A DNA stretch of 33,437 nucleotides, from the IMG/VR virus record IMGVR_UViG_2540341028_000013; one strand, 5' to 3'. Positions 2,091 to 33,437 of the stretch are shown here, piece after piece; positions within the stretch are counted from its first letter, which is position 1, and each line of letters opens with the position of its first letter. The notes below the pieces were generated by a model, which was not told the DNA's origin, did no database searches, and saw only the letters and a list, made by a program, of their open reading frames with translations. Origin of the DNA: a virus (lineage: Duplodnaviria; Heunggongvirae; Uroviricota; Caudoviricetes). The position numbers and the translations under genes are program-made.

Positions 2091-2132
2091 GTTCACAGAT
2101 AAAACACTCTCCAGGAAACCCGGGGCGGTTCA

Positions 2133-2333: not shown

Positions 2334-2341
2334 AGGGCGTT

Positions 2342-2805: not shown

Positions 2806-2877
2806 TGAAGTGGCACACTGAATTTGGCCACCTGAACAGAGGTGATATGCTCACCTCAGAACAACACAGGTGCTCCA

Positions 2878-4046
<1,169 letters not shown>

Positions 4047-4054
4047 CCACTTCA

Positions 4055-11007: not shown

Positions 11008-11754
11008 ATGATTACTCCTGCACAACAACACTGGCAGAACGTGATGGCACAGCGCGCAGGCCGGGCGAATGAAGGCGTGGACCACGCCGCGCGTACCGCG
11101 CATGAAGAGGTGCTGTATCGTCTGCGTCTGGCACAGGCCCGGCTTAAGGGCGTACAGGCCAGAAGCGCGAAAGCCGCCATCAAAAAAGAGTTGTTGCCGG
11201 ATTTTTCCGGCTGGATTGAGGGAACGCTGGAGGCTGACGGCGGGCAGCAGGATGAAGTGATTGCCACGCTGATGGTGTGGGCGATTGACTGTGGCGATCT
11301 TCCGCTTGCGCTGCGTATCGGCGCGTATGTAGTCCGTCACAACCTCATCATGCCGGATAACTTTGGCCGTACTGCTGCCACGGTACTGACCGAAGAAATC
11401 TGTAATCCGGTACTGACGCAGGCCGGGACGGATGCCGACGCGGATTTGTCCGCCTTTATCGAACCACTGGACACCCTCCGGGAGATTGTCACCGACCAGG
11501 ACATGCCGGACGAAGTGCGCGCCAAATTATGCAAAGCGTGCGCCTTTGCCCGCCGTGGCCTGAGTGATGCGGACAGCATGGCCCTGTCACTGAAGCTGCT
11601 GCGCGAAGCAATGCACCTGAACCCGAACGCAGGTGTGAAACGCGAGATTGCAACCCTTTCCCGCGCCCTGAAAAAAGCCGATTCCGCAGCCGAACCAGAA
11701 GACGCCAGCGCACAGCAGGCGCAGGACGAAAGCAGCAAAAAGCAGCAAAAGTAA
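11008..11754 (+). CDS. M: P2-like terminase small subunit gpM
   Basis: 248 aa; ...MPDEVRAKLCKACAFARRG... matches P2 gpM (...MPDEVRAKLHKITG...); RBS GGAGAG upstream. Confidence 0.85.
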   Translation: MITPAQQHWQNVMAQRAGRANEGVDHAARTAHEEVLYRLRLAQARLKGVQARSAKAAIKKELLPDFSGWIEGTLEADGGQQDEVIATLMVWAIDCGDLPLALRIGAYVVRHNLIMPDNFGRTAATVLTEEICNPVLTQAGTDADADLSAFIEPLDTLREIVTDQDMPDEVRAKLCKACAFARRGLSDADSMALSLKLLREAMHLNPNAGVKREIATLSRALKKADSAAEPEDASAQQAQDESSKKQQK

Positions 11755-13735: not shown

Positions 13736-13886
13736 CACTCCCACATGGGGAAATCTCGGTATATGGGGCGACCGCCTTCTGGATGCACTGGAAACCTGTA
13801 ACGCGGATAAACGGGCCATTGAATTACTGGAACAGCGCAGGCTGCAACGACTGAACAACGAGGATAACAACCATGCTGAAAACTGA
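13566..13886 (+). CDS. o-spanin (Rz1/LysC-like outer-membrane lipoprotein)
   Basis: Lipobox LLTGC after a hydrophobic signal; proline-rich mature part (PLPAPSVRLIPQTLTIPVTPPPFPDTP); starts inside the i-spanin gene in another frame. Alternative start at 13596. Confidence 0.65.
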   Translation: MNSYATILQKMNAPTLCLTLVLLTGCAGTQNAPLPAPSVRLIPQTLTIPVTPPPFPDTPTWGNLGIWGDRLLDALETCNADKRAIELLEQRRLQRLNNEDNNHAEN

Positions 13887-14341
13887 TTCCCTGCGTGAAG
13901 CCATGACCCGTTCATGCCGATGGTGTCAGGCTAACCCGGAAAAATTCACCATTTTCGTGGAGAGCGGCAACATTGAAACGACCGGGAGAAACCCCATCGT
14001 TTGTTTACCGCTATCAGATGGTGATGTTTGTCATGGATTACGCCGGGGAGCTGGACGACCTCACGCTGCCGCTGCTGGCGTGGTTATCCGAAAATCAGCC
14101 ACAGTTGTTGCTCAACCCTGAGCGTAATCAGGACATCAAATTTTCCGCCGTTATCAATGACGATGACAGCGCCGATCTCCTGTTTACGCTCCCCCTGCGG
14201 GAACGCGTTCGCATCACGCGCAGCAGTCAGGGCACACCGCAGGCAGAACACCTGCTGGAGCCAAAACCCCGCCTGCCATCTTCCGAAGGCGACTGGTCGC
14301 ATGTATTCCAGGATGTGACGTGGGGTGAAAGCGATGGATAA
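13873..14341 (+). pseudogene. R: P2-like tail completion protein gpR, frameshifted at about 13990
   Basis: N-terminus MLKTDSLREAMT...IFVESGNIETTGRNP (frame A) and the remainder SFVYRYQMVMFVMDYAGELDDLTLPLLAWLSENQP... (frame B) both align to P2 gpR (MLKPDSLRRALT...IFVDNGSIA...SFEKRYTLNVIVTDFTGDFDLLIVPVLAWLRENQP); junction at a CCCC run. Confidence 0.75.
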
Positions 14342-16794: not shown

Positions 16795-17317
16795 TTCGTT
16801 GTTACCACCATCAGCCAGCAATTTCATGCGTTGTGCCGAAGCCGTCGGAACACGCATTACAGACATTCCGGTAGACCTCAACACGCTGTGGTCGCCGGAC
16901 ACCTGCCCGGTGCATCTGCTGCCTTATCTCGCCTGGGCGTTTTCCGTTGACCGCTGGGATCGCAACTGGCCGGAAGAGACAAAGCGACAGGTTATTCGTG
17001 ATGCATGGCTGATACACCGACACAAAGGGACCATCAGCGCACTGCGCCGGGCCATTGAGCCGCTGGGATACCTCATTCGCGTGTCTGAGTGGTGGGAGTT
17101 CGGCGGAGAACCGGGAACATTTACCGTTGAAGTCGGCACGCTGGACAGTGGCGTGACGGAGGAAATGTATCTGGAAATGGAGCGGTTGATTGCTGATGCC
17201 CGCCCGGTCAGCCGCCACATGACAGGGCTGAATATCATTCAGGAAATTCCGGGGGATATTTTCGCAGCGGCGGCAACTTATGACGGTGAAGTTATTACCA
17301 TTTATCCAGGCGATTAA
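16787..17317 (+). CDS. I: P2-like baseplate protein gpI
   Basis: 176 aa from ATG 16787 (P2 gpI 176 aa); overlaps the J stop. Confidence 0.8.
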   Translation: MSNSLLPPSASNFMRCAEAVGTRITDIPVDLNTLWSPDTCPVHLLPYLAWAFSVDRWDRNWPEETKRQVIRDAWLIHRHKGTISALRRAIEPLGYLIRVSEWWEFGGEPGTFTVEVGTLDSGVTEEMYLEMERLIADARPVSRHMTGLNIIQEIPGDIFAAAATYDGEVITIYPGD

Positions 17318-17319
17318 GC

Positions 17320-19305
17320 ATGAGTACCACAACACGAAAATTTAAAACCATTATCACCGATACGGGTGCAAAAAAATTAGCTCAGGTAGCCGCGCCAGAT
17401 GGTAAGCCTGTCCGCCTGACTCATATGGCCGTGGGCGACGGTGGCGGCACGTTGCCCACACCAGACAGTAAGCAGACCCGTCTGGTGCATGAGGTGTGGC
17501 GACATACTGTTAATCGCGTCATCCTGGACGCAACACATCAGAACCGCATTATTGCGGAGCTGGTTATTCCTCCTGAAACGGGCGGATTCTGGATCCGGGA
17601 AATTGGTGTATTTGATGAGCACGGCGATTTAATCGCGGTGGGAAATACTGCCGAAAGTTACAAGCCAGCCGTTGCCGAAGGGTCCGGTCGTGCACAAACA
17701 TTTCGCACCATTCTGACCGTATCCAGCACTGCCACCGTGGCGCTTACCGTGGACAACACCATGGTGATGGCCACAGTGGATTACGTGGATGACAAACTGA
17801 AAGAGCATGAACAGTCACGACGTCACCCGGACGCCTCGCTGACCGCAAAAGGCTTTGTTCAACTCAGTAGCGCCACTAACAGCGTGTCTGAAACGCAGGC
17901 TGCAACGCCGAAAGCAGTAAAGGCCGCGTATGATCTTGCTAACGGTAAATATACTGCGCAGGATGCCAGCACGACGCGAAAAGGCCTTGTCCAGCTCAGT
18001 AGCGCCACCAACAGCACGTCTGAAACGCAGGCTGCAACGCCGAAAGCAGTAAAGGCCGCGTATGACCTTGCTAACGCAAAATATACCGCTCAGGACGCCA
18101 CGACGGCACAAAAAGGGATAGTCCAGCTCAGTAGTGCCACCAACAGCACGTCTGAAACACTGGCCGCGACATCGAAAGCGGTTAAGGCGGTAATGGATGA
18201 AACGAACAAGAAAGCGCCCTTAAACAGTCCTGCGCTGACCGGAACGCCAACAACGCCAGCTGCGCGACAGGGAACGAATAATACCCAAATCGCAAGCACG
18301 GCTTTCGTTATGGCTGCGATTGCCGCCCTTGTAGATTCGTCACCTGACGCACTGAATACGCTGAACGAGTTAGCGGCGGCGCTGGGAAACGCCCCGAATT
18401 TTGCGACCACCATGACTAACGCGCTTGCGGGTAAGCAACCGAAAGATGCCACCCTGACGGCGCTGGCCGGGCTTGCTACTGCGGCAGACAGGTTTCCGTA
18501 TTTTACGGGGAATGATGTCGCCAGCCTGGCAACCCTGACAAAAGTCGGGCGGGATATTCTTGCGAAATCGACCGTTGCTGCCGTTATCGAATACCTCGGT
18601 TTACGAGAACTCGGCACAAGCGGGGAGAAAATACCGTTACTCAGTACAGCGAATACCTGGACCAATCGACAAACATTCAGCGGTGGCCTTTCTGGGGAAC
18701 TGTCCGGCAATGCCGCTACTGCAACAAAGCTGAAAACAGCACGAAAAATTGCTGGAGTTGGTTTTGATGGTTCTAGCGATATTTCAATTAGTGCCAAAAA
18801 TGTCAATGCATTTGCACTCCGACAAACAGGTAATACTGTTAATGGTGATACATCCGTTGGATGGAATTGGGATAGTGGTGCATATAACGCCCTGATTGGT
18901 GGTGCATCTGCATTAATTCTTCACTTTAATATAAATGCTGGTAGCTGTCCTGCCGTACAATTCCGTGTGAATTATAAAAATGGTGGCATTTCCTACAGGT
19001 CGGCTCGTGATGGTTATGGGGTTGAATTAGGTTGGTCAGATTTCTATACCACGACACGAAAACCTTCAGCGGGAGATGTTGGTGCATATACGCGGGCAGA
19101 ATGTAACTCAAGGTTTATTACAGGTATTCGCCTTGGCGGTCTGTCATCTGTTCAGACATGGAATGGTCCCGGCTGGTCTGACAGGTCAGGTTATGTCGTT
19201 ACGGGTTCAGTTAACGGAAACCGTGATGAATTAATTGATACAACACAGGCAAGGCCAATTCAGTATTGCATTAATGGGACGTGGTATAACGCGGGGAGTA
19301 TTTAA
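17320..19305 (+). CDS. H: Tail fibre protein gpH (constant N-terminal part plus currently expressed variable C-terminal cassette)
   Basis: 661 aa; conserved P2-type N-terminus (MSTTTRKFKTIITDTGAKKLA...); internal tail-fibre repeats; C-terminus ...RPIQYCINGTWYNAGSI paralogous to the inverted cassette ending ...[17 protein letters not shown]. Confidence 0.85.
   Translation: MSTTTRKFKTIITDTGAKKLAQVAAPDGKPVRLTHMAVGDGGGTLPTPDSKQTRLVHEVWRHTVNRVILDATHQNRIIAELVIPPETGGFWIREIGVFDEHGDLIAVGNTAESYKPAVAEGSGRAQTFRTILTVSSTATVALTVDNTMVMATVDYVDDKLKEHEQSRRHPDASLTAKGFVQLSSATNSVSETQAATPKAVKAAYDLANGKYTAQDASTTRKGLVQLSSATNSTSETQAATPKAVKAAYDLANAKYTAQDATTAQKGIVQLSSATNSTSETLAATSKAVKAVMDETNKKAPLNSPALTGTPTTPAARQGTNNTQIASTAFVMAAIAALVDSSPDALNTLNELAAALGNAPNFATTMTNALAGKQPKDATLTALAGLATAADRFPYFTGNDVASLATLTKVGRDILAKSTVAAVIEYLGLRELGTSGEKIPLLSTANTWTNRQTFSGGLSGELSGNAATATKLKTARKIAGVGFDGSSDISISAKNVNAFALRQTGNTVNGDTSVGWNWDSGAYNALIGGASALILHFNINAGSCPAVQFRVNYKNGGISYRSARDGYGVELGWSDFYTTTRKPSAGDVGAYTRAECNSRFITGIRLGGLSSVQTWNGPGWSDRSGYVVTGSVNGNRDELIDTTQARPIQYCINGTWYNAGSI
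17848..18213 (+). repeat. Tandem in-frame 132-bp (44-aa) repeats within H, about 2.7 copies
   Basis: KGFVQLSSATNSVSETQAATPKAVKAAYDLANGKYTAQDASTTR / KGLVQLSSATNSTSETQAATPKAVKAAYDLANAKYTAQDATTAQ / KGIVQLSSATNSTSETLAATSKAVKA...; near-identical at DNA level. Confidence 0.85.
18584..18609 (+). repeat. gix/cix-like recombination site (left crossover site) inside H
   Basis: TTATCGAATACCTCGGTTTACGAGAA; about 20 of 26 positions match the reverse complement of the right site, including the central CCTCGGTTTAC core; encodes ...EYLGLRE..., the constant/variable junction of H. Confidence 0.6.
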
Positions 19306-19307
19306 CG

Positions 19308-19841
19308 ATGATGCACTTAAAAAACATTACTGCTGGCAACCCTAAAACAAAAGAGCAATACCAGCTAACAAAGCAATTTAACATCAAATGGCTTTATTCA
19401 GATGATGGGAAAAACTGGTATGAGGAACAAAAGAATTTCCAGCCAGACACTTTGAAAATGGTCTATTACCATAACGGCGTTATTATTTGTATTGAAAAGG
19501 ATGTTTCAGCAATTAATCCGGAAGGCGCAAGCGTCGTTGAATTACCTGATATTACAGCAAATCGCCGGGCTGATATTTCGGGGAAATGGTTGTTCAAAGA
19601 TGGCGTAGTGATAAAGCGAACTTATACCGAGGAAGAGCAGAGGCAACAAGCGGAAAATGAAAAGCAAAGCCTGTTGCAACTTGTCAGGGATAAAACCCAG
19701 CTATGGGACTCACAGCTACGGCTGGGCATCATTTCCGACGAGAATAAACAAAAATTAACCGAGTGGATGCTCTATGCGCAGAAAGTCGAATCTACAGACA
19801 CCTCCAGCCTGCCAGTAACGTTTCCCGAACAACCAGAATGA
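19308..19841 (+). CDS. G: Tail fibre assembly protein (gpG/Tfa), currently expressed orientation
   Basis: 177 aa starting 2 bp after the H stop; N-terminus [22 protein letters not shown] paralogous to the inverted copy. Confidence 0.8.
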   Translation: MMHLKNITAGNPKTKEQYQLTKQFNIKWLYSDDGKNWYEEQKNFQPDTLKMVYYHNGVIICIEKDVSAINPEGASVVELPDITANRRADISGKWLFKDGVVIKRTYTEEEQRQQAENEKQSLLQLVRDKTQLWDSQLRLGIISDENKQKLTEWMLYAQKVESTDTSSLPVTFPEQPE

Positions 19842-19869
19842 GAGAAGGCCCGATATTGGGCCTTAATTT

Positions 19870-20398
19870 TTACTCAGGCTTTTGTGGCCATTCGGGATTT
19901 GCTGTATCCACACGGCTGACCAGAACGCTGTAGCGTTCCCATGACTCCAGTCGTGTGCGTTCCTCATCCATCGCCATATTCAGCCTGACAGCGCGTTCCA
20001 GTGGCTGAATAACGCTTTCAGCTTCAGAAAGCAACGCGACCTTTTGTGATTCGGCCTGTTGTTGCTGTTCGTCTGCTGTATAAATCCGCTTAACCACAGT
20101 TCCGTCCTTAAACATCCACTTCCCTGAATCATCGGCACGACGATTGGCTGTTATATCTGGAATCTCAACGACACTAAAGCCTTCGGGATTAAGCGTTGGG
20201 GCATCTTTGGTTATGGCAACAATAATATTATTTTCGTCGTATACAATCTTTATGGTGTCGTCCTGAAAGTTATTTACTTCCTCATACCAGTTTTTACCGT
20301 CTTCGGACCATAACCAGATAACATCAAAATTCTTTGTTAGCTGATATTGTTCTTTTGTTTTTGGATTTCCGGACTTAATATTTTTTAATATGCTGCAT
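19870..20398 (-). pseudogene. Alternative tail fibre assembly protein (tfa'), frameshifted in codon 6-7
   Basis: ATG at 20398 follows the H' stop by 3 nt, but MQHIKKY* hits a stop; the conserved body ([20 protein letters not shown]...) is in the adjacent frame. Junction is a 6-T run at 20381-20386. Confidence 0.65.
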
Positions 20399-20401
20399 AA
20401 T

Positions 20402-21262
20402 TTACACCTGTGCGACGTTATACCATGTGCCATTGATGTATTTTTGTATTGGTCTGAAGATGGCTTCATCATCGCCATCTACTTCACCAATGATTCTTAA
20501 TCCGGTAATTGCGTGTCCGGCTTTTTCATAACGACCACCACGCGCCATCAATTGAACAACACGCGTACCCAGGCGAACATCTTTTACATAGCGTGAATCA
20601 AAATTCCCCCAGTTGCTGGGCTGTATCTGACCGTTAACAGAAAATATTACCGAGTTATCTGTATTTCGCTGGCTATAGAAATGCCATCCTGCCTCATTGC
20701 CTAACTCTGCAACTACTGGACGGGTTGAAGCACCCCATAAATTAAACGTTGCATTCTTTGTGGAGTTGTTGGAGCTGGATAGCGTGAATTTTTTACCATC
20801 CCCGGCCTGAATATTTTTAAAAGCAATAGCCACTCCATTCTGAAAGCGGAATACACGCTGACTATTAGCATAAACATCCAGAATACCGTCTCCATTCTGT
20901 TTAAATCCGGTGTCATTATCACCAAGAACAATAGAGCTACCACCTAACGCATTCGTCGAACCAACTCCAAGACTGCCATTAATGACAGCATTAACAAGAA
21001 TATTTAGTGCATCCCATTTCAGCGTCATCAGGTCTTTTGTTGTGGTGCTCTGGCGGCTTCTCCATTTGAAATATTCATTGCCGTTGTCGCCTGTTTCAAA
21101 CCACATGTATGAATCAGTGTCACCATCGGCATCATTTTTAAATCCAATCTTCGCCCAGTCAGTATTTCGAATCCAGGCAAGGATTGAGTCATTTTCAAAA
21201 GTAAGCCCACCGGACAAGGTATCGCCATTTTTTTGCACGGCGTTACCAGCCCTGTTTACCGT
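20402..21262 (-). CDS. Alternative tail-fibre C-terminal cassette (H'), silent in this orientation
   Basis: Frame open from the right gix site through ...[24 protein letters not shown]... to ...[18 protein letters not shown]; no start codon of its own upstream (TAA just left of the site); would fuse to H after inversion. Confidence 0.7.
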
Positions 21263-21288
21263 TTCCTGTAAACCGAGGTTTTAAATAA
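21263..21288 (-). repeat. gix/cix-like recombination site (right crossover site)
   Basis: TTCCTGTAAACCGAGGTTTTAAATAA, close to the Gin/Cin/Pin site consensus as recalled (TTCCTGTAAACCGAGGTTTTGGATAA); 55 bp upstream of the invertase start. Confidence 0.7.
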
Positions 21289-21342
21289 TGGCCGTTTCTG
21301 GCCTGCATGGCATGATTTGCGCTTTTGGACGGGAGATTCAGT

Positions 21343-21942
21343 GTGCTGATTGGCTATGTAAGGGTATCAACAAATGACCAGAATACAGACCTGCAACGAA
21401 ACGCTCTTGTTTGTGCAGGATGTGAACAAATATTTGAAGATAAATTAAGCGGGACAAAGACAGACCGACCGGGATTAAAACGCGCTTTAAAGCGCCTTCA
21501 AAAAGGTGACACGCTGGTTGTCTGGAAACTGGATCGCCTCGGGCGAAGCATGAAACATCTGATTTCTCTCGTCGGGGAACTACGGGAGCGAGGGATTAAT
21601 TTTCGCAGTCTGACCGACAGCATAGACACATCTTCTCCAATGGGGCGTTTTTTCTTCCACGTGATGGGTGCCCTGGCTGAAATGGAACGTGAATTAATTG
21701 TTGAACGTACACTGGCCGGGCTGGCGGCAGCGCGCGCAAGGGGGCGCACAGGCGGACGTCGACCGAAGCTGACAAAAGAACAGCATGAGCAAATAGCAAG
21801 GCTAATCAAAAACGGGCACGACAGAAAACAACTGGCAATAATTTACGGCATTGGCACATCGACGATTTATCGTTATCACCCTGTAGGCGATATACAGACT
21901 GAAGAAACAACCGGGCAGACTCAGGAAAATGAAAACCGCTAA
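21343..21942 (+). CDS. pin: Site-specific DNA invertase, serine recombinase of the Pin/Gin/Cin/Hin family
   Basis: GTG start 21343 (RBS GGGAG); (M)LIGYVRVSTNDQNTDLQRNAL...GDTLVVWKLDRLGRSMKHL...GINFRSLTDSIDTSSPMGRFFFHVMGALAEMERELIVERT, near-identical to e14 Pin as recalled, including the catalytic Ser in YVRVSTNDQ. Confidence 0.9.
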   Translation: MLIGYVRVSTNDQNTDLQRNALVCAGCEQIFEDKLSGTKTDRPGLKRALKRLQKGDTLVVWKLDRLGRSMKHLISLVGELRERGINFRSLTDSIDTSSPMGRFFFHVMGALAEMERELIVERTLAGLAAARARGRTGGRRPKLTKEQHEQIARLIKNGHDRKQLAIIYGIGTSTIYRYHPVGDIQTEETTGQTQENENR

Positions 21943-21965
21943 TCTGACCATTAGCGGTTTTTGTG
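21935..21965. terminator. Putative bidirectional rho-independent terminator between convergent pin and U
   Basis: ACCGCTAAT-CTGACC-ATTAGCGGT hairpin followed by TTTTGTG on plus and preceded by A-rich sequence (T-rich on minus). Confidence 0.5.
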
Positions 21966-21970
21966 TTAAA

Positions 21971-22465
21971 TCAGAACAGCCCTTTAACTGAACTGGCCGC
22001 GCTGTTAAGAGATGATGTCACCTTATCTTTGAAGCCGGACAGCATATCACTGAACGATGAGGATTGCAGGCGCTCCCGCAAATCCTCATCACAGCGTTCA
22101 AGAGTCAGTGAAAATTCTATCTTTTTCGCCTTACCGTAGCGATCAAACTCGGAGCGGGTCGTATTCGTTTCAGTCAGGACATACATGCCGTAAATCTGCC
22201 CGACGCCATCAATCAAAGGCCAGGGTCGTCCTGTATACGCCTGCGTAGTCAGCAGCGACAGCGACACTTCGCCACCTGTAATTTCAGGATAAAGCACACC
22301 AGAAAGAACGATGCGATCATCACCTGCACCGATATACTGCCAGCTTGCTGAACGGTTAACGCGTTCATTTTTCACATGCCGCCAGCTTTTGTTTTGCTGT
22401 AACTGCTGATGCGGCAGCGTGCGCAGCTCAAAAACAAACATGCCGTAGATCATCATCATGGCCAT
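21971..22465 (-). CDS. U: P2-like tail protein gpU
   Basis: 164-aa ORF; ...SWRH...LSG.LYPEITGG.VSL..L...GRPWPLIDG.G.IYGMYV... pattern as in P2 gpU. Confidence 0.8.
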   Translation of the reverse strand: MAMMMIYGMFVFELRTLPHQQLQQNKSWRHVKNERVNRSASWQYIGAGDDRIVLSGVLYPEITGGEVSLSLLTTQAYTGRPWPLIDGVGQIYGMYVLTETNTTRSEFDRYGKAKKIEFSLTLERCDEDLRERLQSSSFSDMLSGFKDKVTSSLNSAASSVKGLF

Positions 22466-22471
22466 GACTCC

Positions 22472-25315
22472 TCAATCTTTATCGTAAAAACAGCCACGCC
22501 CGGCACGGGCGCGCCGTTCCATTTCTGCCCTGACCATTTCACCGACCAGTTTCGCCAGTTCGCGGGGATTCTGCGTAACAACGTTATGCAGATGAACATG
22601 AATTTCACCACCAAATCCGAAGGCAACAGGCTCCCGGTTACGGGAAGTTACAGGAACTGATGCCACTGGAGATCGTATAGCCTCCGCCACCGGGCGGGAG
22701 CTGGCCGCAACAACAGGGACCAGCGCCGGAGGCAGCGGAGCCGGAACCACGGGTGTGATATTAATTGCGGGGGCAGGCTTACTGACCTGCGCAATCTTCC
22801 GCTCCTGCCACTCCCCACGAACAGCAAGTGCTCGGGGCAGGTTTTTAAAGACAATATCGCCGGGGCCAATGCGTTTTTTCGTCTCCTCAACCAGCTTACC
22901 TGTGTTATCAGCAATTTTGCTGAGTCTGCGCAGCGTACCGGTATTGCTGTCTGTGAGCGGTTTATTGTCTTTGGGGTTATCACCTCCGGTGCCATTGCCA
23001 TTTTCCACAGGCTTCGGCGGATTGATTTTCGCCAGATCCCCCTGAAGCAAGGCAACCTTGTCCTGAAGAATGGCCGCACGCTGTGCGTCTTCGATTTTCT
23101 TGCGCGCCCTTTCCGCTTCATCCGGAAGCACACCAAGCTTTTCAAGTATCCACGCCAGCGTATCCAGCAACATTTTTGCAGGTGTCAGAACAAGTTGTAA
23201 CGCACCGCCAAGAACGTTACCGAATATCTCGCCAGCACTGGTACATTTATCCAGAGTTTCCTTGCTGGACTCCATCGGTGACAGCAGCGATTTAAACCAG
23301 TTAAACACCTGGCTGATCCCACTCCCGATTGCGTCAAAAACAGGACCAAACCGTTCAAAGGTTTCGCGCAACGGGGTCAGCCTTTCCATAATCCCGCTGA
23401 ACACCCCGGCAAAAAATGCCCTGATGGGATCCCAGTATTTCCAGATAAGAACGGCAGCTCCGGCAAGCGCAGCCACGATAAGACCAACCGGACTGAACAA
23501 CGCCCCGATAGCGCCTCCCAGTAAAGAAACGGAACCCGTCACCATTCCCCATAGTGCTGGCAGAACCCTGACAGCATTCATTGATCCGGTCAGGAGGGAA
23601 AAACCAAGACGCAGTTTTGCCAGCGGGCCAGCAAGCACACCAATAGCCAGCGACAACGAGCCAACCGTTGCAGTCATTGCCAGCAATGCACCGCCTGCAA
23701 TCAGTAGCTGGCGCGTCAGTGCGGGATGGGCCTGCGCCAGCGCCGTCACCTTTGATACCACACGCGTGAGCCACTGCGTGACAGAACGCAGCGGACCGTC
23801 AATCAGATCTGCAATGCGGATGCGCAACCCTTCCCATGCACTGCTGAGTGATTTCAGATCGCCGTCAAGGTTGTTGGCCATAACCTTTGCCGTGCGTTCA
23901 GCCTCACCGCGCGCGCCTTCAAGTTCTTTTCTCAGTTTGGGTAAGGAGCCGTCACCTGCCGCATCAACGAGGGCCATAAATGATGTGAAAGCCTCTTCTC
24001 CGGCAATGTCCTTAAAGAACGATACCCGGTCAACTTCCCCGTATTTGCGGGTAGCTTTATAAAGGTCAGCCAGCACATCCTCCATCGGGCGCATTTTGCC
24101 CCCGGCATCCGAGACAGACACGCCAAGCTCTTTCAGCGCCTCTGCTGCCGCCTTTGGCGGTGATGCCAGACGAGCCAGGCTGGCACGCATTGCCGTACCA
24201 GCATCACTCCCCCTGATACCCATATTCGCCAGCACGCCCGCCATCGCTGCGGCCTGCTCCAGAGATATTCCCAGCTTACCCGCCACCGGACCTGCATATT
24301 TCATGGTTTCACCCAGTGCGCGAAGGTCAGTGTTGGTACGGGTAAACGCTGCGGTGAGTGTGTCGCCGACCCGGTCCATCTGGTCAGCAGAAAGACCGAA
24401 CTGCGTCAGAATATTTGAGCCAATATCCGCCGTCTCACCGAGGTCCATACCGCCAGCCGTTGCCATGCTCAGTACGCCAGGGAGCGCAGCCTGAATGGCC
24501 TGTGGTGTAAAGCCAGCCATTGCAAGAAATGCCTGTCCACTGGCGGCATCGCCTGCGGTGAACTGCGTTTCAGAGCCAAGTTTTAACGCCTGCTCACGCA
24601 GCGCCTTAAACTGCGGGCTGTTCTGGTCGATTCGCGTCAGTGCCTGAACGCGGGACATCTCTTTGCCGAACCCGATCGCAGGCTGCAAAAAACGCCCGGC
24701 AGCATAGCCGCCCGCCGCTGCCGCACCAATTGCCAGCGCACCACCTGTTTTCAGTTTTCCCGCTGTTTCCTGCGCGCGCGAATACCGCTCACGCGCCCGT
24801 GTTACACGCGCAAGCGCCTGCCGTTCGCGTTCAAGCTGGTTGTTGTACTGTTCGGTGCGTCTGATGGCCTGCTGGATGGTGTTATCGCTGCCTGTCAGGG
24901 AAATGCCGTGGCGTTTCAGCTCTCCGCCAAGCTCCCGCATTTTCTGAATTTCCCGTGTGCGCGATTCATTCAGGCGTTCAAGCCGGGTGCTTAACTGCTG
25001 CATCAGCTTTTGTTGTTTTTCGCTGAGCACTGTACCCGTGCGTTGTAACTGATTAAGGGCGTTAAGCTGGCGTCGTGCTTTCACGATGCCAGCATCCGCT
25101 TTACTGACAGCGTCACGGGCGCGCTCAAATGATCGCGCCTGACGCTCGAGATTTTTGATCGCCCCCTGCGTTCGCTGGATGGAGTCACCAAACTGCCCCA
25201 TCAGGCGGCGGGCGTTTTCGGCAGGCCGGGTCAGCCTGTCAACGGCGCTGAAAGCGACCCGGATATCAAGAGTCTTCATTGTCTGCATTCCCGCTACGAA
25301 GTGCCGCCCGCTCAC
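22472..25315 (-). CDS. T: Tail tape measure protein gpT
   Basis: Intact 947-aa ORF; long coiled-coil N-terminal half, Gly/Ala-rich hydrophobic middle segments, position between E/E' and U. Confidence 0.85.
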   Translation of the reverse strand: MSGRHFVAGMQTMKTLDIRVAFSAVDRLTRPAENARRLMGQFGDSIQRTQGAIKNLERQARSFERARDAVSKADAGIVKARRQLNALNQLQRTGTVLSEKQQKLMQQLSTRLERLNESRTREIQKMRELGGELKRHGISLTGSDNTIQQAIRRTEQYNNQLERERQALARVTRARERYSRAQETAGKLKTGGALAIGAAAAGGYAAGRFLQPAIGFGKEMSRVQALTRIDQNSPQFKALREQALKLGSETQFTAGDAASGQAFLAMAGFTPQAIQAALPGVLSMATAGGMDLGETADIGSNILTQFGLSADQMDRVGDTLTAAFTRTNTDLRALGETMKYAGPVAGKLGISLEQAAAMAGVLANMGIRGSDAGTAMRASLARLASPPKAAAEALKELGVSVSDAGGKMRPMEDVLADLYKATRKYGEVDRVSFFKDIAGEEAFTSFMALVDAAGDGSLPKLRKELEGARGEAERTAKVMANNLDGDLKSLSSAWEGLRIRIADLIDGPLRSVTQWLTRVVSKVTALAQAHPALTRQLLIAGGALLAMTATVGSLSLAIGVLAGPLAKLRLGFSLLTGSMNAVRVLPALWGMVTGSVSLLGGAIGALFSPVGLIVAALAGAAVLIWKYWDPIRAFFAGVFSGIMERLTPLRETFERFGPVFDAIGSGISQVFNWFKSLLSPMESSKETLDKCTSAGEIFGNVLGGALQLVLTPAKMLLDTLAWILEKLGVLPDEAERARKKIEDAQRAAILQDKVALLQGDLAKINPPKPVENGNGTGGDNPKDNKPLTDSNTGTLRRLSKIADNTGKLVEETKKRIGPGDIVFKNLPRALAVRGEWQERKIAQVSKPAPAINITPVVPAPLPPALVPVVAASSRPVAEAIRSPVASVPVTSRNREPVAFGFGGEIHVHLHNVVTQNPRELAKLVGEMVRAEMERRARAGRGCFYDKD

Positions 25316-25316
25316 G

Positions 25317-25534
25317 TCAGCTAACCACTTCGCCGGGCGTCATCATGAAAATTTCGGCGGGCGACCAGTTAAAAATGGCGGCAATATCCGCCACCAGATC
25401 TTCGATGTGCTCAAAGCACACCAGGGTGATTACGCTGCCGTCTCCTGCACGCTCTTCGCGCCAGAGTCTGGCTCGCTCATAAAATTTACAGCCACAGCGC
25501 ACAACTGAATAAAATCGCGTGACGACATTTTTTT
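25317..25534 (-). CDS. E' extension of the tail assembly chaperone (gpE+E' by -1 programmed frameshift)
   Basis: The -1 frame stays open from the A7 tract (plus-strand T7 at 25528-25534) to a stop at 25317 overlapping the T start; translation ...FEHIEDLVADIAAIFNWSPAEIFMMTPGEVVS. Exact slip position not determinable. Confidence 0.5.
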
Positions 25535-25804
25535 AATCATCACTTCATCCAGTCGTGGCGAGGTCACGCGAGGCAACAGCGTGAACATGGTATCCGCTTT
25601 CAGATTCAGCACATCAGACAGCGACAGACCACGCAGGGATCCAGCCTGCTCAATAGCCCCGGTGATCTCCACATACGTGATTTTTTCGCCACCACGCTCA
25701 ATTGGTCGGGTCAGTTTTACGCCACGTTCGACAGCCATATCCTCAACTGCCGTCACATTATCCGCCACGGTGTTATTCCGGGTTTCAGTATCGATGTCTT
25801 TCAT
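25430..25804 (-). CDS. E: Tail assembly chaperone gpE
   Basis: 124-aa ORF from ATG 25804 (RBS AAAAGGAGA); position between FII and T. Confidence 0.7.
   Translation of the reverse strand: MKDIDTETRNNTVADNVTAVEDMAVERGVKLTRPIERGGEKITYVEITGAIEQAGSLRGLSLSDVLNLKADTMFTLLPRVTSPRLDEVMIKKMSSRDFIQLCAVAVNFMSEPDSGAKSVQETAA
25528..25534 (-). promoter_or_regulatory. Candidate slippery tract for the E/E' -1 ribosomal frameshift
   Basis: AUUAAAAAAAUG on the mRNA; the -1 frame downstream is the long E' ORF. Confidence 0.4.
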
Positions 25805-25859
25805 CTGTTGTCTCCTTTTCAGTCAGAGGCGACGCACTGCGCCGCCAGCATATTACTTA

Positions 25860-26370
25860 TCAGCCAAGCCCAAGCGCGGAACGGATGCGATCGGGCACAA
25901 TGTCCTTGCCGTCCTTCCGGTAAATGAAGTTCAGCAGGTCAATCTCCCACAACGGGCGATCGTTAACACTCAGCTTGTAGTAGGTGTTTTAATGGCGTAA
26001 GTGTGTGATGTGGCTTCGCCCTGTTTGGCTTCCCCCATATCAATTTCCGTCACACGTCCGCGCATTTCGACTTCATACAGGTCGCTTTCTGCATCGGTGT
26101 AGTATTCACCCGCAAAACGCAGCAGCGTGCCGTCAATCGTGCCGCCATACTTAAGGAACAGCTCACGAACTGCGCCCCCATGACAAAGCTCGCATCAAGC
26201 GCGGAGTCGTCCAGACCGAGATCAATACTTACCGCACCCATCATGCCACCACCCCGGTAGCTGTCGGTTTTGCGCGTCAGCTTAGGCAGAGTGACGGACG
26301 TCACATTACCCACTTCGTTTTCACCATCCACAAACAGCGTAAAAAAGCGAAGATGTTTTGGCACAGCCAT
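25860..26370 (-). pseudogene. FII: P2-like tail tube protein gpFII, interrupted by two single-base homopolymer indels
   Basis: Three consecutive frames carry colinear tube-protein sequence: MAVPKHLRFFTLFVDGENEVGNVTSVTLPKLTRKTDSYRGGGMMGAVSIDLGLDD... / ...AVRELFLKYGGTIDGTLLRFAGEYYTDAESDLYEVEMRGRVTEIDMGEAKQGEATSHTYAIK / NTYYKLSVNDRPLWEIDLLNFIYRKDGKDIVPDRIRSALGLG*. Junctions at a G5 run (about 26176-26180) and an A4 run (about 25986-25989). Confidence 0.75.
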
Positions 26371-27554
26371 CAGGCACCTCCCAGCACCGCAAATGCGGGT
26401 TCAAAGTATTCATCAGTAAACGTCTGGTAAAGCTCCATGTCTTCCAGTGGCGGAACGGGCGTATATTTGTAGCGAATACGCACACGTCCCTGACGTAAAT
26501 CCGTGGTGCTGTTATCCACCACGTCATACCAGCACTCCGCGCCAATCAGTTTCCCGGCAGTCACCAGTGAATCCAGTTTTGCCCTGATGGCACTGATAAC
26601 ATCCTTCACATTCGCAGGCGTCAGTGGACTGTCGATGGTTTCAAACTGCGCTTCCGCAATTGAATCAGCCAGCACCTGTGCGGTTCGGGTATACACCTCA
26701 AAGATGTAGGCGTTCGTTTCCGGTGTGCGGTTACCCCAGAAGCGGAACCCGTTGCGACGAATAATGGTCGTGATTTCTTTGTTGTTGAGGCTGTTGGCAT
26801 CGCTGTCTTCGGCCTGCAACGACCAGAACACATGCCTCGACATCCCCAGCACATTTTTAACCGGAACGTTGGACAGCGATTTGTGCCATCCCTGTTCATG
26901 GTCAATGTACGCACGAAGGCCGCACGCATAGGCAGGCGCGGGGAACGTTTCGTTTTTGCCATTTTTCGGGTTGTAGGCGATGAAGTCCGGCCATAAGAGC
27001 ATCACCTCACGTTCGTTGAATTTCTGGCGGTAGGTAATTGCCTCGGCCATCGTGTTACAGCCATGACATGAGGCATACACAAACGCGCGCAGTTTATCTG
27101 CAATCACGCACAGGGATTTTGTTACCGCCTCCGTGTCCAGCTCCGGCGCGGCCAGAATACGCGGACGGTATCCGATGCTTTCATCCTGCTCTGCAACAAG
27201 CAGCGCATACATCCCCGTATAGCTGCCGTCATCCTCAGAACCACCGATAACCAGTTGATCCTGCGTCTTTCCGTCTTCTTCTTTGTGTTCAGCCACGCGA
27301 ACGACGATCACCTTTGTGCTCACCTGGTCTGCGATGGCCTTAAGCGCACGATAAAGCGTCCCCGTTGTCCCGCATTTTCCCAGCACGTCATTGACGCGGG
27401 TCAGCAGTGTGGGCTTGTTCAGCGGGAACAGCTTCGCGTCCGCATCATCCGCCGTTGCCACGATACCGATAACGCTGGAATCAACATCGTTAATCGCTGT
27501 TACCAGGTCGGTATTCTCCGTAACACGGGCACCATGAAAACGAGTTTCACTCAT
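26370..27554 (-). CDS. FI: P2-like tail sheath protein gpFI
   Basis: Intact 394 aa; ...FPLNKP.L.T.V...L...KGTL...L.AIADQ ... LRAFVYASCHGC ... GWHKSLSNV ... IRRNGFRFWGNRT ... YTRTAQV.AD ... YKYTPVPPLE, matching P2 gpFI (about 396 aa) as recalled. Confidence 0.9.
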   Translation of the reverse strand: MSETRFHGARVTENTDLVTAINDVDSSVIGIVATADDADAKLFPLNKPTLLTRVNDVLGKCGTTGTLYRALKAIADQVSTKVIVVRVAEHKEEDGKTQDQLVIGGSEDDGSYTGMYALLVAEQDESIGYRPRILAAPELDTEAVTKSLCVIADKLRAFVYASCHGCNTMAEAITYRQKFNEREVMLLWPDFIAYNPKNGKNETFPAPAYACGLRAYIDHEQGWHKSLSNVPVKNVLGMSRHVFWSLQAEDSDANSLNNKEITTIIRRNGFRFWGNRTPETNAYIFEVYTRTAQVLADSIAEAQFETIDSPLTPANVKDVISAIRAKLDSLVTAGKLIGAECWYDVVDNSTTDLRQGRVRIRYKYTPVPPLEDMELYQTFTDEYFEPAFAVLGGA

Positions 27555-27711
27555 AGCTTCAGCCCCTTGTATCCGTTAAATGATTCAGCAACAATCATCA
27601 CCCACCACGCGCGTAATCTCACCCCTGCGCCGTTCTCCCGCCACGGCGACAACAAAAAGCAGTAACCCCCTCCGCACGCACATGCGACCATGCCGCACAG
27701 GGAGGGAGCAG
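27555..27711. promoter_or_regulatory. Divergent intergenic region between FI (leftward) and D (rightward)
   Basis: 157-bp gap expected to hold the FI-operon promoter; contains TGATTCAGCAACAATCA dyad; whether any promoter here reads into D is unknown. Confidence 0.3.
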
Positions 27712-28821
27712 ATGACCGACACCACCATGCAATTGCTCAGTCAGGGCACGGCCCCCGTGAAAATGCCGGATTTTGATATTCTCTCGGAGGGTAAAACGCT
27801 GTCAGGCGTGGCGGAGCGCCTGATGAGCCTGTAACTGACCGACAACCGGGGATTTGAGGCGGACCAGCTCACCATCACGCTGGATGATGCGGATGGTCAG
27901 TTGCAGCTACCGCCACGGGGCGCGCGTCTGACGGTTCTCATTGGCTGGAAAGGGGAACCGCTGACAGAAAAAGGCACTTACATTGTTGATGAAATCGCTC
28001 ACGAAGGACCGCCGGACAGGCTGACTGTTTCAGCCAGAAGCGCAGATTTTCGGGATGAATTTAACGTTAAACGTGAGGTGTCCTGGCATGATGTGACCGT
28101 TGAGCGTGTGGTATCCGCCATCACTCATCGGTACGGTCTGAAACCGCAAATCAGCGAAATGCTGATGGATATCGAAATCGACCACGCCGACCAGACCGAA
28201 GAAAGCGACATGTCCTTTCTTACGCGCATGGCGGAAATGCTGGGAGCAATCGCCACGGTAAAAAGCGGCAATCTGTTATTCATCATGCCAGGTGGTGGCG
28301 TGAACGCACAGGGGCAGCCGTTGCCCTCGTTCGCCATTACACGCAGCAGCGGCGATCGCCATCAGTTCCGCATTGCTGACCGCGAGGCGTATACGGGGGT
28401 ACGCGCCTACTGGCTTGATCTTAATTACGGGAAAAAGAAAAAAGTCAGCGTGAAACGCCGCAAACCGCCAAAACCCAAAAAGGAGAAAAGCAGCAGTCGG
28501 GAAGGCGACTATATGGAAGGTGCGGAAGGCAACGTGTTTGTGTTACGCAAGACTTATCAGAACGAGCAGGCAGCAAGACGCGCAGCGGCGGCAAAGTGGC
28601 AGCAGCTACAACGCGGAGCCGCATCATTCTCCATCACGCTGGCGCGTGGTCGTGCAGAACTCTATCCCGAAATGCATGGCACAGTGACAGGCTTTAAAAG
28701 CGAGATTGATTATCAGGACTGGACTATTGCAAAAGCCGAGCACACCATTGATAACAGCGGCTTTACCACGCAGCTTGAACTTGAAGCAAAAATCCCGGAA
28801 TGGATAGCAGAAACAGAATAA
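27712..28821 (+). pseudogene. D: P2-like tail protein gpD with in-frame TAA at codon 41 (27832-27834)
   Basis: ATG 27712 (RBS GGGAGGGAG). One frame reads ...SGVAERLMSL-TAA-LTDNRGFEADQLTITLDDADGQLQLPPRGARLTVLIGWKG...WHD... to 28821, colinear with P2 gpD (...SRLVSLTLTDNRGFEADQLDIELNDADGQVGLP...); the stop replaces a single codon. Confidence 0.8.
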
Positions 28822-29069
28822 ATCTCTTAAAAATATTATTTTTGAGATGTGCTTCTACACTGACAGTAAGAACAAAAGATAATGTATCAGCCCACTAGAT
28901 GTCAGAGGTTGGGGCATCAACCAGATGCTAACAATAATACGGATGTTTTTCCCACATGACAGAGGAAGTCAAGTATAATCTTCACAGTCCATCCCGTCCA
29001 AGGGAATATGACTCAATAGTAAAAGTTCCAGTTTAGTTAGTAGACCCACACTTTATAGAAGAGTAATTC

Positions 29070-32000
29070 ATGATTGGACAATTTTTAAGTGCAACAGAGA
29101 TTTTAGCAAAGAACTATGTTCGTAATAAAATGGTTAAAAATCCATTTTATTCGAATTTAAAATGGAATTTTATTGAAAAAAACATCATAAGATTAACATC
29201 CTCACCGGTTAAATCAGTACTTTGCATATCAGCTTTTTCATTTGTACTACTTTATGTTGGATATTTAAACGAATTATTTATAAAAAATAATCTTTTACAT
29301 TATTTCCCGTTTAGGCATTCATTAACCGAATGGCAAACAACCATTTTAAGTGGCCAATTGACAATTATTGGTATTGTATACCCCCTTGTTATAGGTTTAG
29401 TAAGTGTCTTATTCCAAAAAAAGGCAGATAGAAAAATAGCCCAAACTGCTTATCAGCGTTACTCAGGATTCATGCTTGCTGGACTCAGCGGGCTTTTCTT
29501 ATCAGGATTTATACTTCTCAGTGTACTAATTAAAACTGTCTTTGGAAGTTATCTTTATGGTATAGCTTGTCTAATCAGCATATTATGGCTTTTGATAAAC
29601 ATAGTTCTTTCTATTTGGTTCTTTATCGTGAGTCTTGAAATTCTTGATGATGTAAAACGGCAAATAATTATAAAGCGATACATTGCCTTCGAAATAGTAA
29701 TGCCCCATATTTGTAACAAAATATCAGCCAAGCTTAGGTTATACCCTATCTATCAAAAACATAACTATTCAAATTTAGAAATCACGCAAGCCGATTACAA
29801 AGGAGAATACATATCTGTGGCTAGCAGTTATTCTAAGGAAGATGAGTTAAGTTTATATCACCGTCCTTTTCAACTTACTCTTAATCTTATTAATTACCAA
29901 CTAAAAAAGAAGAATCATTTTGCGTCATTTGTCATTGGTGATAATCGTACAAAAGAAACAGAATCCACGGGTAAGATACTTTTTAGCGTTAAAAATATCA
30001 AACCAGACAGCTTATTAATAAAAATACTTAAGCAATGTTTTTATAGGGCTCCGATTAAAGGAGGAGATTTTTCCGTAAGTCTTACAATGCAGGCTATAAC
30101 AGCAGATACGTATATGTATCTGCGGGATTCTGATCTCATTAGTTTTGACAATGCTATCTCTGCATTAATTAATAACTTTAATAATCTCTGCGATTTGTAT
30201 TTTTTTCAAGATGATAATACCAACAATAACTTCTTACTGATCACTACAGAATTATTTGAACGGAGTTTTCAATATGAGTTTTCAGATGAAGTTTATAAAA
30301 TATCAAATAATTCCATGGATAAAATTAATCTTTCTGAAAGATTTTTTGAATTATGTCTTTGGAGCGGAGTGCGTATTATCAATAATAGAAAACATCTTAT
30401 CAGCAATGAACTTTGTATCTATATGGGAATTACTCGTTCACAATGGTCAATATTAACAGAATGGTTCCGAAACAACCAATCACTCTTAAATGCCTCGCTT
30501 CGTTCACGTTATAATCGTATATTAAGAACCTATATCACTGTTTGGGAGCAATATCAAGAAAGCATAAACTTTCGTTTCTGCAATACAGAGAATTCAGATT
30601 TATTTGAATTATTTTGCAAAACGCAACTACAAGAACTTCCATCGATGATTATTGATGCAACACAGACTCGCGATCCTTCTACTATTGATACAGCCGTCGA
30701 TCTTATTAACCGATGGCAGCACTCAATGAATATTGACAGCCATTCGGTAGAAAAATACAGTTACAAAGGCCAGCTTTTTAACCCGGGTTTTTTCATATCC
30801 AAAAAACTAAACTTCAATTCAGACAGAGAGTGGTTCAATATTGCCATCATAAATGCGTTGACTGACATGCGTATATGCACATGTCTTTATCTGACATCAA
30901 GAATCAATACTTCTGACAAACTAATGACACATTACATTAAACTTATTTTAGAGGGTAAACTTATTGACCAAACCGGTGGATATGAAACTCCCACTGAAGA
31001 AATTGATAATGCAAGCCAACTAATCAAGATATTAATTAGAATCTGCCTGTGGACATGGTCTGAAAATATGGAGCACAATGGGTGGATGAATAGTTTAGCA
31101 AGGCGTTTACGTGACTATGATAAAACAGACATGGTGATGGGCAGAGTTTACAGTAATGTTTTTGACTGTGGATTTATTGATATGGAACAATCATGGGTTC
31201 AGCTATTATTAATTTTTTCTAACAAGAACGATAGCGTATCAAAAGAAATAAAAGAAGCAATAGAAAACAACTATATAACATATCGTGAGAAGCAACGACT
31301 CATTGGAGTATTATCAAAAATTTGTAACTCCATCGAATACACTAAAATCAAGCTGACTTTAACATTGGACGATCTCCAAACAAAAAAAGAAAACTTAAGA
31401 AAGTTGCTTCAAGAGCATATTAACATGCTAAAGAAAGATCTTGATATGAGACTTCAGGATGCTGCCATAGATGTACATCGACTAGATAGCACTGCACGTA
31501 AAACATCAGAACATCTTCGTAAACGCATCAAGAAAACGCTCCCTCTTTCACTTTTCAAATCTATTGATTTTAAGCAGGCTAGCGATTGTTTCACAAAACA
31601 TAAGATATCTATTAAGATAGATAAAGAACCGTATGCCGAAGGAATAGAATCCATCCCTTATATCAATGAAGGTGATATTCAAGCAGACTTAATTCTCAAG
31701 GACATCCAGAGAATAATACTTTCAAATTTATTTAGCACTGGCTGTTCGCAACATACCGTAATAGAAGATTTCAATATGTTGATTGATCACATAAAATCAT
31801 CTGCTGACTTGGCTGGCAAACTGGTTCTTGTGATGAGTAAAGAGATCTTTCAGCAATATAATCGTATGCTTTTCGATAATCCCAACCTCAGAGAACTAAT
31901 GAGAAAAAATGATGATGGCTCTATGAACATAACTACTGAATCCGGTACCCGTAAGGTTTACTTCTTACCATTTGTTAATCAACCATTTTCTCTTGTGGTA

Positions 32001-32189
32001 AAGGATAACTACTTCACTAAATTAATTATTAGAGAATATGATAATAATAAGTTAGTAAATGTCACTTCAGAGAATATCAAAAGTGACTCAGATAAATTCA
32101 AGCTAACTCTTAACTATGAGTTGAATATAGTATTTGAAGGAAACGCTGATTTAAAAATAGCTCACTCGCAAAGAGTGACATCAGAATAA
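29070..32189 (+). CDS. Large hypothetical membrane-anchored protein (1039 aa): about four N-terminal TM helices plus an ~850-aa soluble region of unknown function
   Basis: Uninterrupted 3.1-kb ORF in visibly AT-rich DNA; predicted TM segments around residues 50-70, 90-115, 130-155 and 160-190; no nucleotide-binding, nuclease or protease motif recognised by eye. Confidence 0.85.
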   Translation: MIGQFLSATEILAKNYVRNKMVKNPFYSNLKWNFIEKNIIRLTSSPVKSVLCISAFSFVLLYVGYLNELFIKNNLLHYFPFRHSLTEWQTTILSGQLTIIGIVYPLVIGLVSVLFQKKADRKIAQTAYQRYSGFMLAGLSGLFLSGFILLSVLIKTVFGSYLYGIACLISILWLLINIVLSIWFFIVSLEILDDVKRQIIIKRYIAFEIVMPHICNKISAKLRLYPIYQKHNYSNLEITQADYKGEYISVASSYSKEDELSLYHRPFQLTLNLINYQLKKKNHFASFVIGDNRTKETESTGKILFSVKNIKPDSLLIKILKQCFYRAPIKGGDFSVSLTMQAITADTYMYLRDSDLISFDNAISALINNFNNLCDLYFFQDDNTNNNFLLITTELFERSFQYEFSDEVYKISNNSMDKINLSERFFELCLWSGVRIINNRKHLISNELCIYMGITRSQWSILTEWFRNNQSLLNASLRSRYNRILRTYITVWEQYQESINFRFCNTENSDLFELFCKTQLQELPSMIIDATQTRDPSTIDTAVDLINRWQHSMNIDSHSVEKYSYKGQLFNPGFFISKKLNFNSDREWFNIAIINALTDMRICTCLYLTSRINTSDKLMTHYIKLILEGKLIDQTGGYETPTEEIDNASQLIKILIRICLWTWSENMEHNGWMNSLARRLRDYDKTDMVMGRVYSNVFDCGFIDMEQSWVQLLLIFSNKNDSVSKEIKEAIENNYITYREKQRLIGVLSKICNSIEYTKIKLTLTLDDLQTKKENLRKLLQEHINMLKKDLDMRLQDAAIDVHRLDSTARKTSEHLRKRIKKTLPLSLFKSIDFKQASDCFTKHKISIKIDKEPYAEGIESIPYINEGDIQADLILKDIQRIILSNLFSTGCSQHTVIEDFNMLIDHIKSSADLAGKLVLVMSKEIFQQYNRMLFDNPNLRELMRKNDDGSMNITTESGTRKVYFLPFVNQPFSLVVKDNYFTKLIIREYDNNKLVNVTSENIKSDSDKFKLTLNYELNIVFEGNADLKIAHSQRVTSE

Positions 32190-32198
32190 TATCTTTGA

Positions 32199-32228
32199 CG
32201 GCGCTCCTTAGAGTGCCGTTCGTTTATT
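32199..32228 (+). terminator. Rho-independent terminator downstream of the 1039-aa ORF
   Basis: CGGCGCTC-CTTA-GAGTGCCG stem-loop (8 bp with one G-U) followed by TTCGTTTATT, 10 bp after the stop codon. Confidence 0.55.
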
Positions 32229-32324
32229 AACTAATGCTAAAAATCATTATATAGAGAAAGTCATGTTTAAATCTTAGAGAATACAACCTAGAATAGTGTA
32301 AGCACTACAATAAGAGAGGTCGCT

Positions 32325-32520
32325 ATGTTCCGTTGTCCGCTTTGTGGCGCATCTGCCCGTATCCGCACCAGTCGTCCGGAAAATGATTCAAACACCGTGA
32401 GACAAAAGTATTATCAGTGTAACAATCTAGAATGCGGCGTATGTTTCTCAACACTGGAAGCCTTCCACAAATTCACTTCAAAGCACGCCTCCCCCATTCA
32501 CTCATCAGAGGGCATCCCGT
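32325..32520 (+). pseudogene. ogr: ogr (P2 late-gene activator, zinc-finger protein), 3' end disrupted by IS2
   Basis: MFRCPLCGASARIRTSRPENDSNTVRQKYYQCNNLECGVCF resembles P2 Ogr (MFHCPLCQHAAHARTSRYITDTTKERYHQCQNVNCSATF) with the four Cys conserved; the reading frame continues into the IS2 terminus at 32521, giving a foreign C-terminus. Confidence 0.8.
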
Positions 32521-33437
32521 TGGATTTGCCCCTATATTTCCAGACATCTGTTATCACTTAACCCATTACAAGCCCGCTGCCGCAGATATTCCCGTGGCGA
32601 GCGATAACCCAGCGCACTATGCGGATGCCATTCGTTATAATGCTCGAACGCCTCTGCAAGGTTCTTTGCTGCCGTTAACCCGTCTGGTTTGGGCATGATA
32701 CTGATGTAGTCACGCTTTATCGTTTTCACGAAGCTCTCTGCTATTCCGTTACTCTCCGGACTCCGCACCGCCGTGTTCTTCGGTTCAAGTCCCAACATCC
32801 GGGCGAACTGGCGTGTTTCATTAGCCCGGTAGCATGAACCATTATCCGTCAGCCACTCCACTGGAGACGACGGAAGATCGTTGCCGAAGCGGCGTTCCAC
32901 CGCTCCCAGCATGACGTCCTGTACTGTTTCACTGTTGAAGCCGCCGGTAGTCACCGCCCAGTGCAGTGCCTCACGATCACAGCAGTCCAGCGCGAACGTG
33001 ACACGCAGTCTCTCTCCGTTATCACAGCAGAACTCGAACCCGTCAGAGCACCATCGCTGATTGCTTTCTTTCACGGCCACTCTGCCTGTATGTGCCCGTT
33101 TCGATGGCGGTACAGCAGGTTTTCGCTCAAGCAACAGCGCATTCTGGCGCATGATCCGGTAAACACGTTTGGCATTGATCGCAGGCATACCATCAAGTTC
33201 TGCCTGTCTGCGAAGCAGCGCCCATACCCGACGATAACCATACGTGGGCAGCTCTCCGATAACATGGTGTATACGGAGAAGCACATCCGTATCATCAGTG
33301 TGACGACTGCGGCGGCCATCCATCCAGTCATCGGTTCGTCTGAGAATGACGTGCAACTGCGCACGCGACACCCGGAGACAACGGCTGACTAAGCTTACTC
33401 CCCATCCCCGGGCAATAAGGGCGCGTGCGCTATCCAC
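32521..33437 (-). mobile_element. IS2, partial (insD-proximal 917 bp; continues beyond the window edge)
   Basis: Begins with IS2 terminus TGGATTTGCCCCTATATTTCCAGACATCTGTTATCACTTAACCC and encodes full-length insD on the minus strand; matches the IS2 sequence as recalled. Confidence 0.9.
32532..33437 (-). CDS. insD: IS2 transposase InsD (OrfB)
   Basis: 301 aa; the window ends exactly at its GTG start codon; ...[32 protein letters not shown]...WLTDNGSCY... DDE-type catalytic region. Confidence 0.9.

Follow-up and report, generated by a model that had tools for sequence, protein, structure and literature searches.

An ochre codon in the baseplate hub gene of a P88-like prophage remnant is shared across a group of Shigella strains

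Laboratory nonsense mutants in gene D of phage P2 are tail-defective and conditional-lethal, and an early nonsense codon abolishes tails unless the phage is grown in a suppressor host. Those mutants were engineered or selected in otherwise intact phages, whereas the gene D lesion that we describe here is a natural, fixed one in a multiply broken prophage remnant, and we know of no suppressor in the Shigella hosts that carry it. The protein encoded by an intact orthologue of this D gene resembles a baseplate component of pyocin R2 of known structure (6u5h chain C, which we take to be PA0628), with an alignment over residues 18-356 (E value 3.3e-41). Codon 41, where the lesion lies, falls in the N-terminal block that is best conserved in this alignment. 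PA0628-PA0616 constitute the pyocin hub-spike complex, the counterpart of T4 gp27-gp5 (PMC10811340). The R-type pyocin gene is functional in a domesticated tailocin, whereas in the remnant neither the hub gene nor the tube gene is intact. Decay of prophages through point mutation, small indels and insertion sequence (IS) activity is well known in Shigella. Our literature search for a description of this particular prophage in Shigella returned nothing specific.

Relationship to P88-like prophages

The DNA that we analysed, hereafter the window, is the 33,437-nucleotide IMG/VR virus record IMGVR_UViG_2540341028_000013. In searches of a phage collection, the region showed a nucleotide identity of 94-96% to P88-like phages and prophages (Xuanwuvirus, Peduoviridae); matches of 95-99% were obtained in over 1,100 E. 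coli genomes. Compared with P88 itself, the window is 96-98% identical over positions 5670-28817 (about 20 kb matched) and has the same gene order, so that both identity and synteny are those of a Xuanwuvirus (P88-like) element. The likeness extends to the arrangement of the tail genes, in which the FI-FII-E-T-U block is divergent from D (sheath, tube, E, tape-measure and U on the minus strand, D on the plus strand), and to gene D, whose start codon is the same and whose length is nearly the same. What sets the window apart is that P88 and the intact prophage relatives have a TCA at codon 41 of D and intact tube, portal, capsid, int and gpA genes, all of which are lost or broken in the window. 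The element thus does not hold the complete set of integration, replication, head and tail genes of a viable Xuanwuvirus.

The prophages of E. coli GDSC2BY4G and ETEC4088 are closer still: they are 99.7% identical to the window over positions 17001-32520 and carry the same cargo gene between D and ogr. The right-hand neighbours of the GDSC2BY4G prophage, hok-ihfA-pheT, are also those of the sister Shigella loci, and the neighbouring genes indicate a prophage site between btuC and ihfA. Both E. coli prophages differ from the window in having a full-length, 369-aa D with Ser-41 and an intact tube gene.

The ochre codon of gene D and its distribution

Gene D (27712-28821, plus strand; baseplate hub, Phage_GPD family) spans 369 codons with one internal stop, a TAA at codon 41 (27832-27834). 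Its native start, ATG at 27712, is served by a strong Shine-Dalgarno sequence, GGGAGGGAG, at 27700-27708 on the plus strand (anti-SD duplex -11.6 kcal/mol). The stop leaves an N-terminal open reading frame of 40 aa (27712-27834, plus strand). Past codon 41, the frame stays open until the natural stop at 28819-28821, and the first in-frame restart, a TTG at codon 64 with a weak Shine-Dalgarno sequence, opens a residual reading frame of 306 aa (27901-28821, plus strand). Translated through the stop, the gene is 98.6% identical to the intact D of E. coli GDSC2BY4G over residues 1-369 (tblastn). Four intact relatives encode SLSLTDNRGFEADQL around codon 41, where the window has SL*LTDNRGFEADQL. In the Pfam family PF05954, 'Phage tail baseplate hub (GPD)', for which the curated cut-off is 30.1 bits, the 306-aa fragment reaches 59.0 bits and the intact orthologue 60.6 bits; D also matches PHROG 52, 'tail protein', with an E value of 8e-166. 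Both the family profile and the homology to a solved hub thus assign D to the Phage_GPD baseplate hubs, to which it does not bring an uninterrupted full-length frame. Because of the TAA at codon 41, we classify the locus as a pseudogene of the PF05954 family rather than as a functional member.

Codon 41 is TCA (Ser) in the four intact relatives, namely E. coli ETEC4088, GDSC2BY4G and VG38-53E1 and phage P88, and it is likewise TCA in the D gene of UTI89. A single C>A transversion at position 27833 thus turned Ser-41 into an ochre codon. These results bear out the initial annotation of the window, which had described an in-frame TAA at codon 41 of D, had attributed it to a base substitution and had found the rest of the gene open and conserved.

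That annotation had also pointed out that a sense codon in other data would make the TAA a base-calling error and leave D intact, and it had proposed a comparison with D in sister strains. To map the allele, we scanned public collections with a pattern in which base 27833 was left free, and obtained 122 loci. The equivalent base is C in 121 of them and A in one, a rearranged copy of the Shigella type on an IMG/VR contig. Looking up the exact 40-aa and 306-aa products retrieved 20 independent assemblies, and every one of them carries the TAA, which brings the tally to 21 of 21 Shigella-type loci with the IMG/VR contig included. Among these assemblies are S. boydii Sb227 (CP000036) and several other complete genomes, together with Logan assemblies built from separate SRA runs; the Sb227 genome was reportedly Sanger-sequenced, in 2005. 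Both fragments of D are on record in large numbers. The 40-aa product occurs on 643 contigs, under 'MULTISPECIES: hypothetical protein [Shigella]' and S. dysenteriae (indexed in 927 blocks), and the 306-aa product on 670 contigs, named for S. boydii Sb227, S. flexneri and Shigella sp. FC1764 (749 blocks). AERO01000026.1, a contig of S. flexneri CDC 796-83 (PMC5429569), matches the window at 100% identity.

Since the TAA recurs in all of the independent Shigella-type sequences, it is no base-call error. The window assembly does contain one lesion that is found nowhere else (a +G in gpR at 13986), so occasional errors in it are conceivable. Against an error at codon 41 stand the identical TAA in 21 independently produced sequences, complete genomes, Sb227 and Logan assemblies among them, and the hundreds of contigs on which the fragment products are recorded. 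We therefore give practically no credence to the idea that an assembly artefact conceals an intact D, and the sense codon that would have spoken for it did not turn up in any Shigella-type sequence. The TAA allele is thus fixed within a Shigella group and has been inherited clonally there.

Outside this group the ancestral codon prevails. None of the complete E. coli RefSeq genomes is 100% identical to the window, and the three best (99.0-99.7%) all have TCA. A contig collection with one genome per species, a poor sample of Shigella diversity, gave two matches, in Salmonella enterica and Vagococcus, both with TCA. The latter is an exact 32-nt match to P88-type D at positions 3012-3043 of a 226-kb contig, NZ_JBQPOM010000071.1, assigned to Vagococcus sp. 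WN89Y (Firmicutes), and looks like contamination or a mislabelled assembly.

Two features of database annotation touch on the same gene. In many E. coli genomes, the PGAP pipeline calls the intact 369-codon D as a 266-aa 'contractile injection system protein, VgrG/Pvc8 family'. In E. coli RefSeq records this coding sequence is found, for instance, at 3422-4222 of our locus L001 and also in L003 and L155, equivalent to window positions 28021-28821; its start is placed at an internal CTG, and the annotation adds a spurious antisense pseudogene next to it. We considered whether these 266-aa entries, which include O104:H4 and UTI89, mean that a D stop is widespread in E. coli, and rejected the idea: the DNA is intact with TCA, and the short entry is an annotation quirk. 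Separately, 31 E. coli contigs carry a 109-aa N-terminal D fragment (product P0018, for example CBJ01518.1) that differs from the 40-aa one. The prefix CBJ presumably points to E. coli strain 042. Going by the 109-aa fragment, D has probably been truncated independently in further lineages.

Companion lesions and a probable relaxation of constraint

We catalogued the other lesions of the element against the intact GDSC2BY4G prophage (99.7% identical) and P88. In the tail module, the tube gene FII (25863-26370, minus strand) has two 1-bp deletions, at 25986 and 26174, each of which shifts the frame. Both deletions are present in 17 of 20 sister loci, and in the other three at least one of the two sites is deleted or unmatched. 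The sheath, tape-measure and baseplate genes of the window are intact. In the head module, the portal gene (6109-7145, minus strand) has lost 10 bp at about 7031 between GGTCA direct repeats, and a 303-aa portal fragment is indexed in 320 blocks. The major capsid gene (9911-10962, plus strand) is frameshifted by -1 within a run of A at about 10085, and the small terminase gene gpM (11008-11754, plus strand) carries a 10-bp tandem duplication at 11729-11738 that alters its C-terminus. The portal, capsid and gpM lesions are common to four sister assemblies (L028-L031). In these same four, the tail completion gene R (13873-14341, plus strand) is wild type, and its +G at 13986 is the only lesion confined to the window assembly, where it could reflect either a mutation of this strain or a genuine error of assembly.

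The ends of the element have been remodelled by insertion sequences. On the left, IS3-family elements (877-4054, comprising 877-2090, 2842-4046 and a partial copy at 2541-2805) stand in place of int, C, cox and gpA, and ParM is truncated at 4055. Transposase domains are detected in the IS3-family elements, and tblastn with the P88 integrase, C (repressor), cox and gpA (replication) proteins gave no match in the window. On the right, the 3' end of ogr is replaced by another IS3-family element (32325-33437, with a transposase reading frame at 32532-33437 on the minus strand), and colinearity with the intact prophage stops at 32520. Past the IS element at ogr (32520-33437 in the window, past 15537 in locus L008) lie unrelated chromosomal genes, among them inositol monophosphatase-like and 5'-nucleotidase genes; the same right-end position in most sister strains is occupied by hok-ihfA-pheT, which points to a strain-specific IS-mediated rearrangement at this end of the prophage. 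Sister strains have decayed further: IS1 copies interrupt D, the tube gene and the cargo gene, and larger deletions are present.

These lesions, about ten in number and including the lost early region and the broken portal, capsid and tube genes, agree with the original view that the prophage is genuinely defective. Two other parts of that view need revision. The D stop was held to be the strongest single piece of evidence for the defect, but the portal, gpM and early-region lesions are at least as decisive, and they cannot be suppressed. The stop was also set apart from homopolymer frameshifts, which were regarded as possible length miscalls. The tube deletions and the capsid frameshift recur in independent assemblies, however, and are therefore real inherited mutations as well.

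The pattern of substitution is in keeping with this decay. From the invertase gene through the cargo gene, the branch leading to the window accumulated 3 synonymous, 5 non-synonymous and 1 nonsense substitution, as against 66 synonymous and 15 non-synonymous in four intact relatives over the same region (Fisher p = 0.004 versus the window branch). Within D itself, all three window-branch changes alter the protein. The intact relative ETEC4088, with no synonymous and 6 non-synonymous changes, makes an odd control. Counts on the window branch are small, and their direction fits a loss of purifying selection there.

We consider it very probable that the D nonsense mutation was inherited as part of the neutral decay of a multiply broken P88-like remnant. 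In this P88-like prophage (Xuanwuvirus, Peduoviridae), D encodes the baseplate hub, and the C>A transversion from TCA (Ser-41) to ochre arose in an ancestor of the Shigella group to which S. boydii Sb227, isolates of S. dysenteriae and S. flexneri CDC 796-83 belong. Ribosomes that begin at the strong native start would stop after 40 residues, and a functional hub would not be made. The stop was passed on clonally together with the tube frameshifts, the portal deletion, the capsid frameshift, the gpM duplication and the IS-mediated loss of the early region. The element is a decaying remnant that can build neither heads nor tails, and we read the D stop as a neutral step in that decay, in whichever order the lesions arose.

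Residual function, cargo and significance

A truncated gene may still yield product, and several routes to a functional D can be envisaged: an ochre-suppressor tRNA, read-through of the UAA-C, re-initiation at the TTG of codon 64, or association of the 40-aa and 306-aa fragments. The reading frame remains open beyond codon 41, and the base 3' of the TAA is a C, which gives the weakest and leakiest termination context in E. coli. The in-frame TTG lies 66 nt downstream of the stop behind a weak SD-like sequence (-6.3 kcal/mol), and a single tail requires just three copies of the hub. On the other side, ARAGORN found no tRNA gene within the window, and with it no cognate suppressor encoded by the element. 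The relatives have a sense codon at this position, so codon 41 is no programmed recoding site and read-through no evolved feature; a programmed site would have its stop conserved in functional homologues, whereas TCA is found at 121 of the 122 loci and TAA only in decayed copies of the Shigella type. A product started at codon 64 would be without residues 18-63, which comprise the start of the alignment to the solved pyocin hub and its most conserved motif. The Pfam match is silent on this region (in intact D, the PF05954 match starts at residue 91, which says nothing on residues 1-63), and we set it aside as proof that the N-terminus is essential. Even a working D would have no assembly partners, given the broken tube, capsid and portal genes and replication module, and in sister strains D has been hit by IS1, while two more amino-acid changes have accumulated in D. 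Trace read-through of the UAA-C may occur, without consequence given the broken capsid, portal and tube genes. We regard rescue of D as unlikely, and the idea that the gene is functional despite its stop as scarcely credible.

Other parts of the remnant are better preserved. A Cin/Gin-type invertase gene (21343-21942, plus strand) is intact, encoding 199 aa that are 99% identical to those of the intact prophage. The invertible tail-fibre segment (window 18580-21292) is oriented in L008 and L020 as in the window and is inverted in most sister assemblies (L006, L009, L017 and L023, for example). Site-specific inversion thus seems to have continued in a prophage that is unable to make particles. 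Between D and ogr lies an AT-rich reading frame for a membrane protein of 1039 aa (29070-32189, plus strand), intact in the window. It is labelled 'MFS transporter' in RefSeq, and searches of Pfam, NCBIfam, PADLOC and PHROGs gave no match. The frame is present in the intact sister prophages and absent from P88 and UTI89, and on that distribution we take it to be a cargo (moron) gene. In several sister strains it is broken by IS1 or frameshifts.

The survival of these genes raises the question of whether the D nonsense codon was favoured by selection, as a step in a domestication in which a lethal prophage or tailocin was disarmed while a useful cargo was kept. Fixation of the lesion across the whole clade would be in line with this, as would the intact invertase gene and cargo frame of the window and the two orientations of the invertible segment among strains. 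Yet int, gpA, portal and capsid are lost or broken as well and, depending on the order of events, there was perhaps nothing left to disarm; the cargo frame has itself been broken in several sister strains; and where reproduction is clonal and the effective population small, as in Shigella, a mutation can be fixed without selection. We therefore judge selection for the D stop to be very unlikely. A broader variant holds that the remnant is kept for its still-working parts, with the D stop among the lesions that lock the carrier in place and the 1039-aa frame as a new host-beneficial or anti-phage cargo; this we regard as improbable. Neutral decay remains our preferred account.

In summary, the D stop is a case of ordinary gene decay with no new biology, and its fragments are already in public databases. 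There the 40-aa and 306-aa pieces are catalogued separately on hundreds of Shigella contigs and should instead be treated as one pseudogene. Together with the tube frameshifts, the stop means that the tail module is as dead as the head module; because the hub and tube genes are both broken, by a nonsense codon and by two frameshifts, respectively, the remnant cannot be an R-type tailocin, and such a role is excluded. For the strains that carry them, the D allele and the lesions that accompany it are stable markers of common ancestry across the clade, uniting strains of S. boydii, S. dysenteriae and the S. flexneri CDC 796-83 type.
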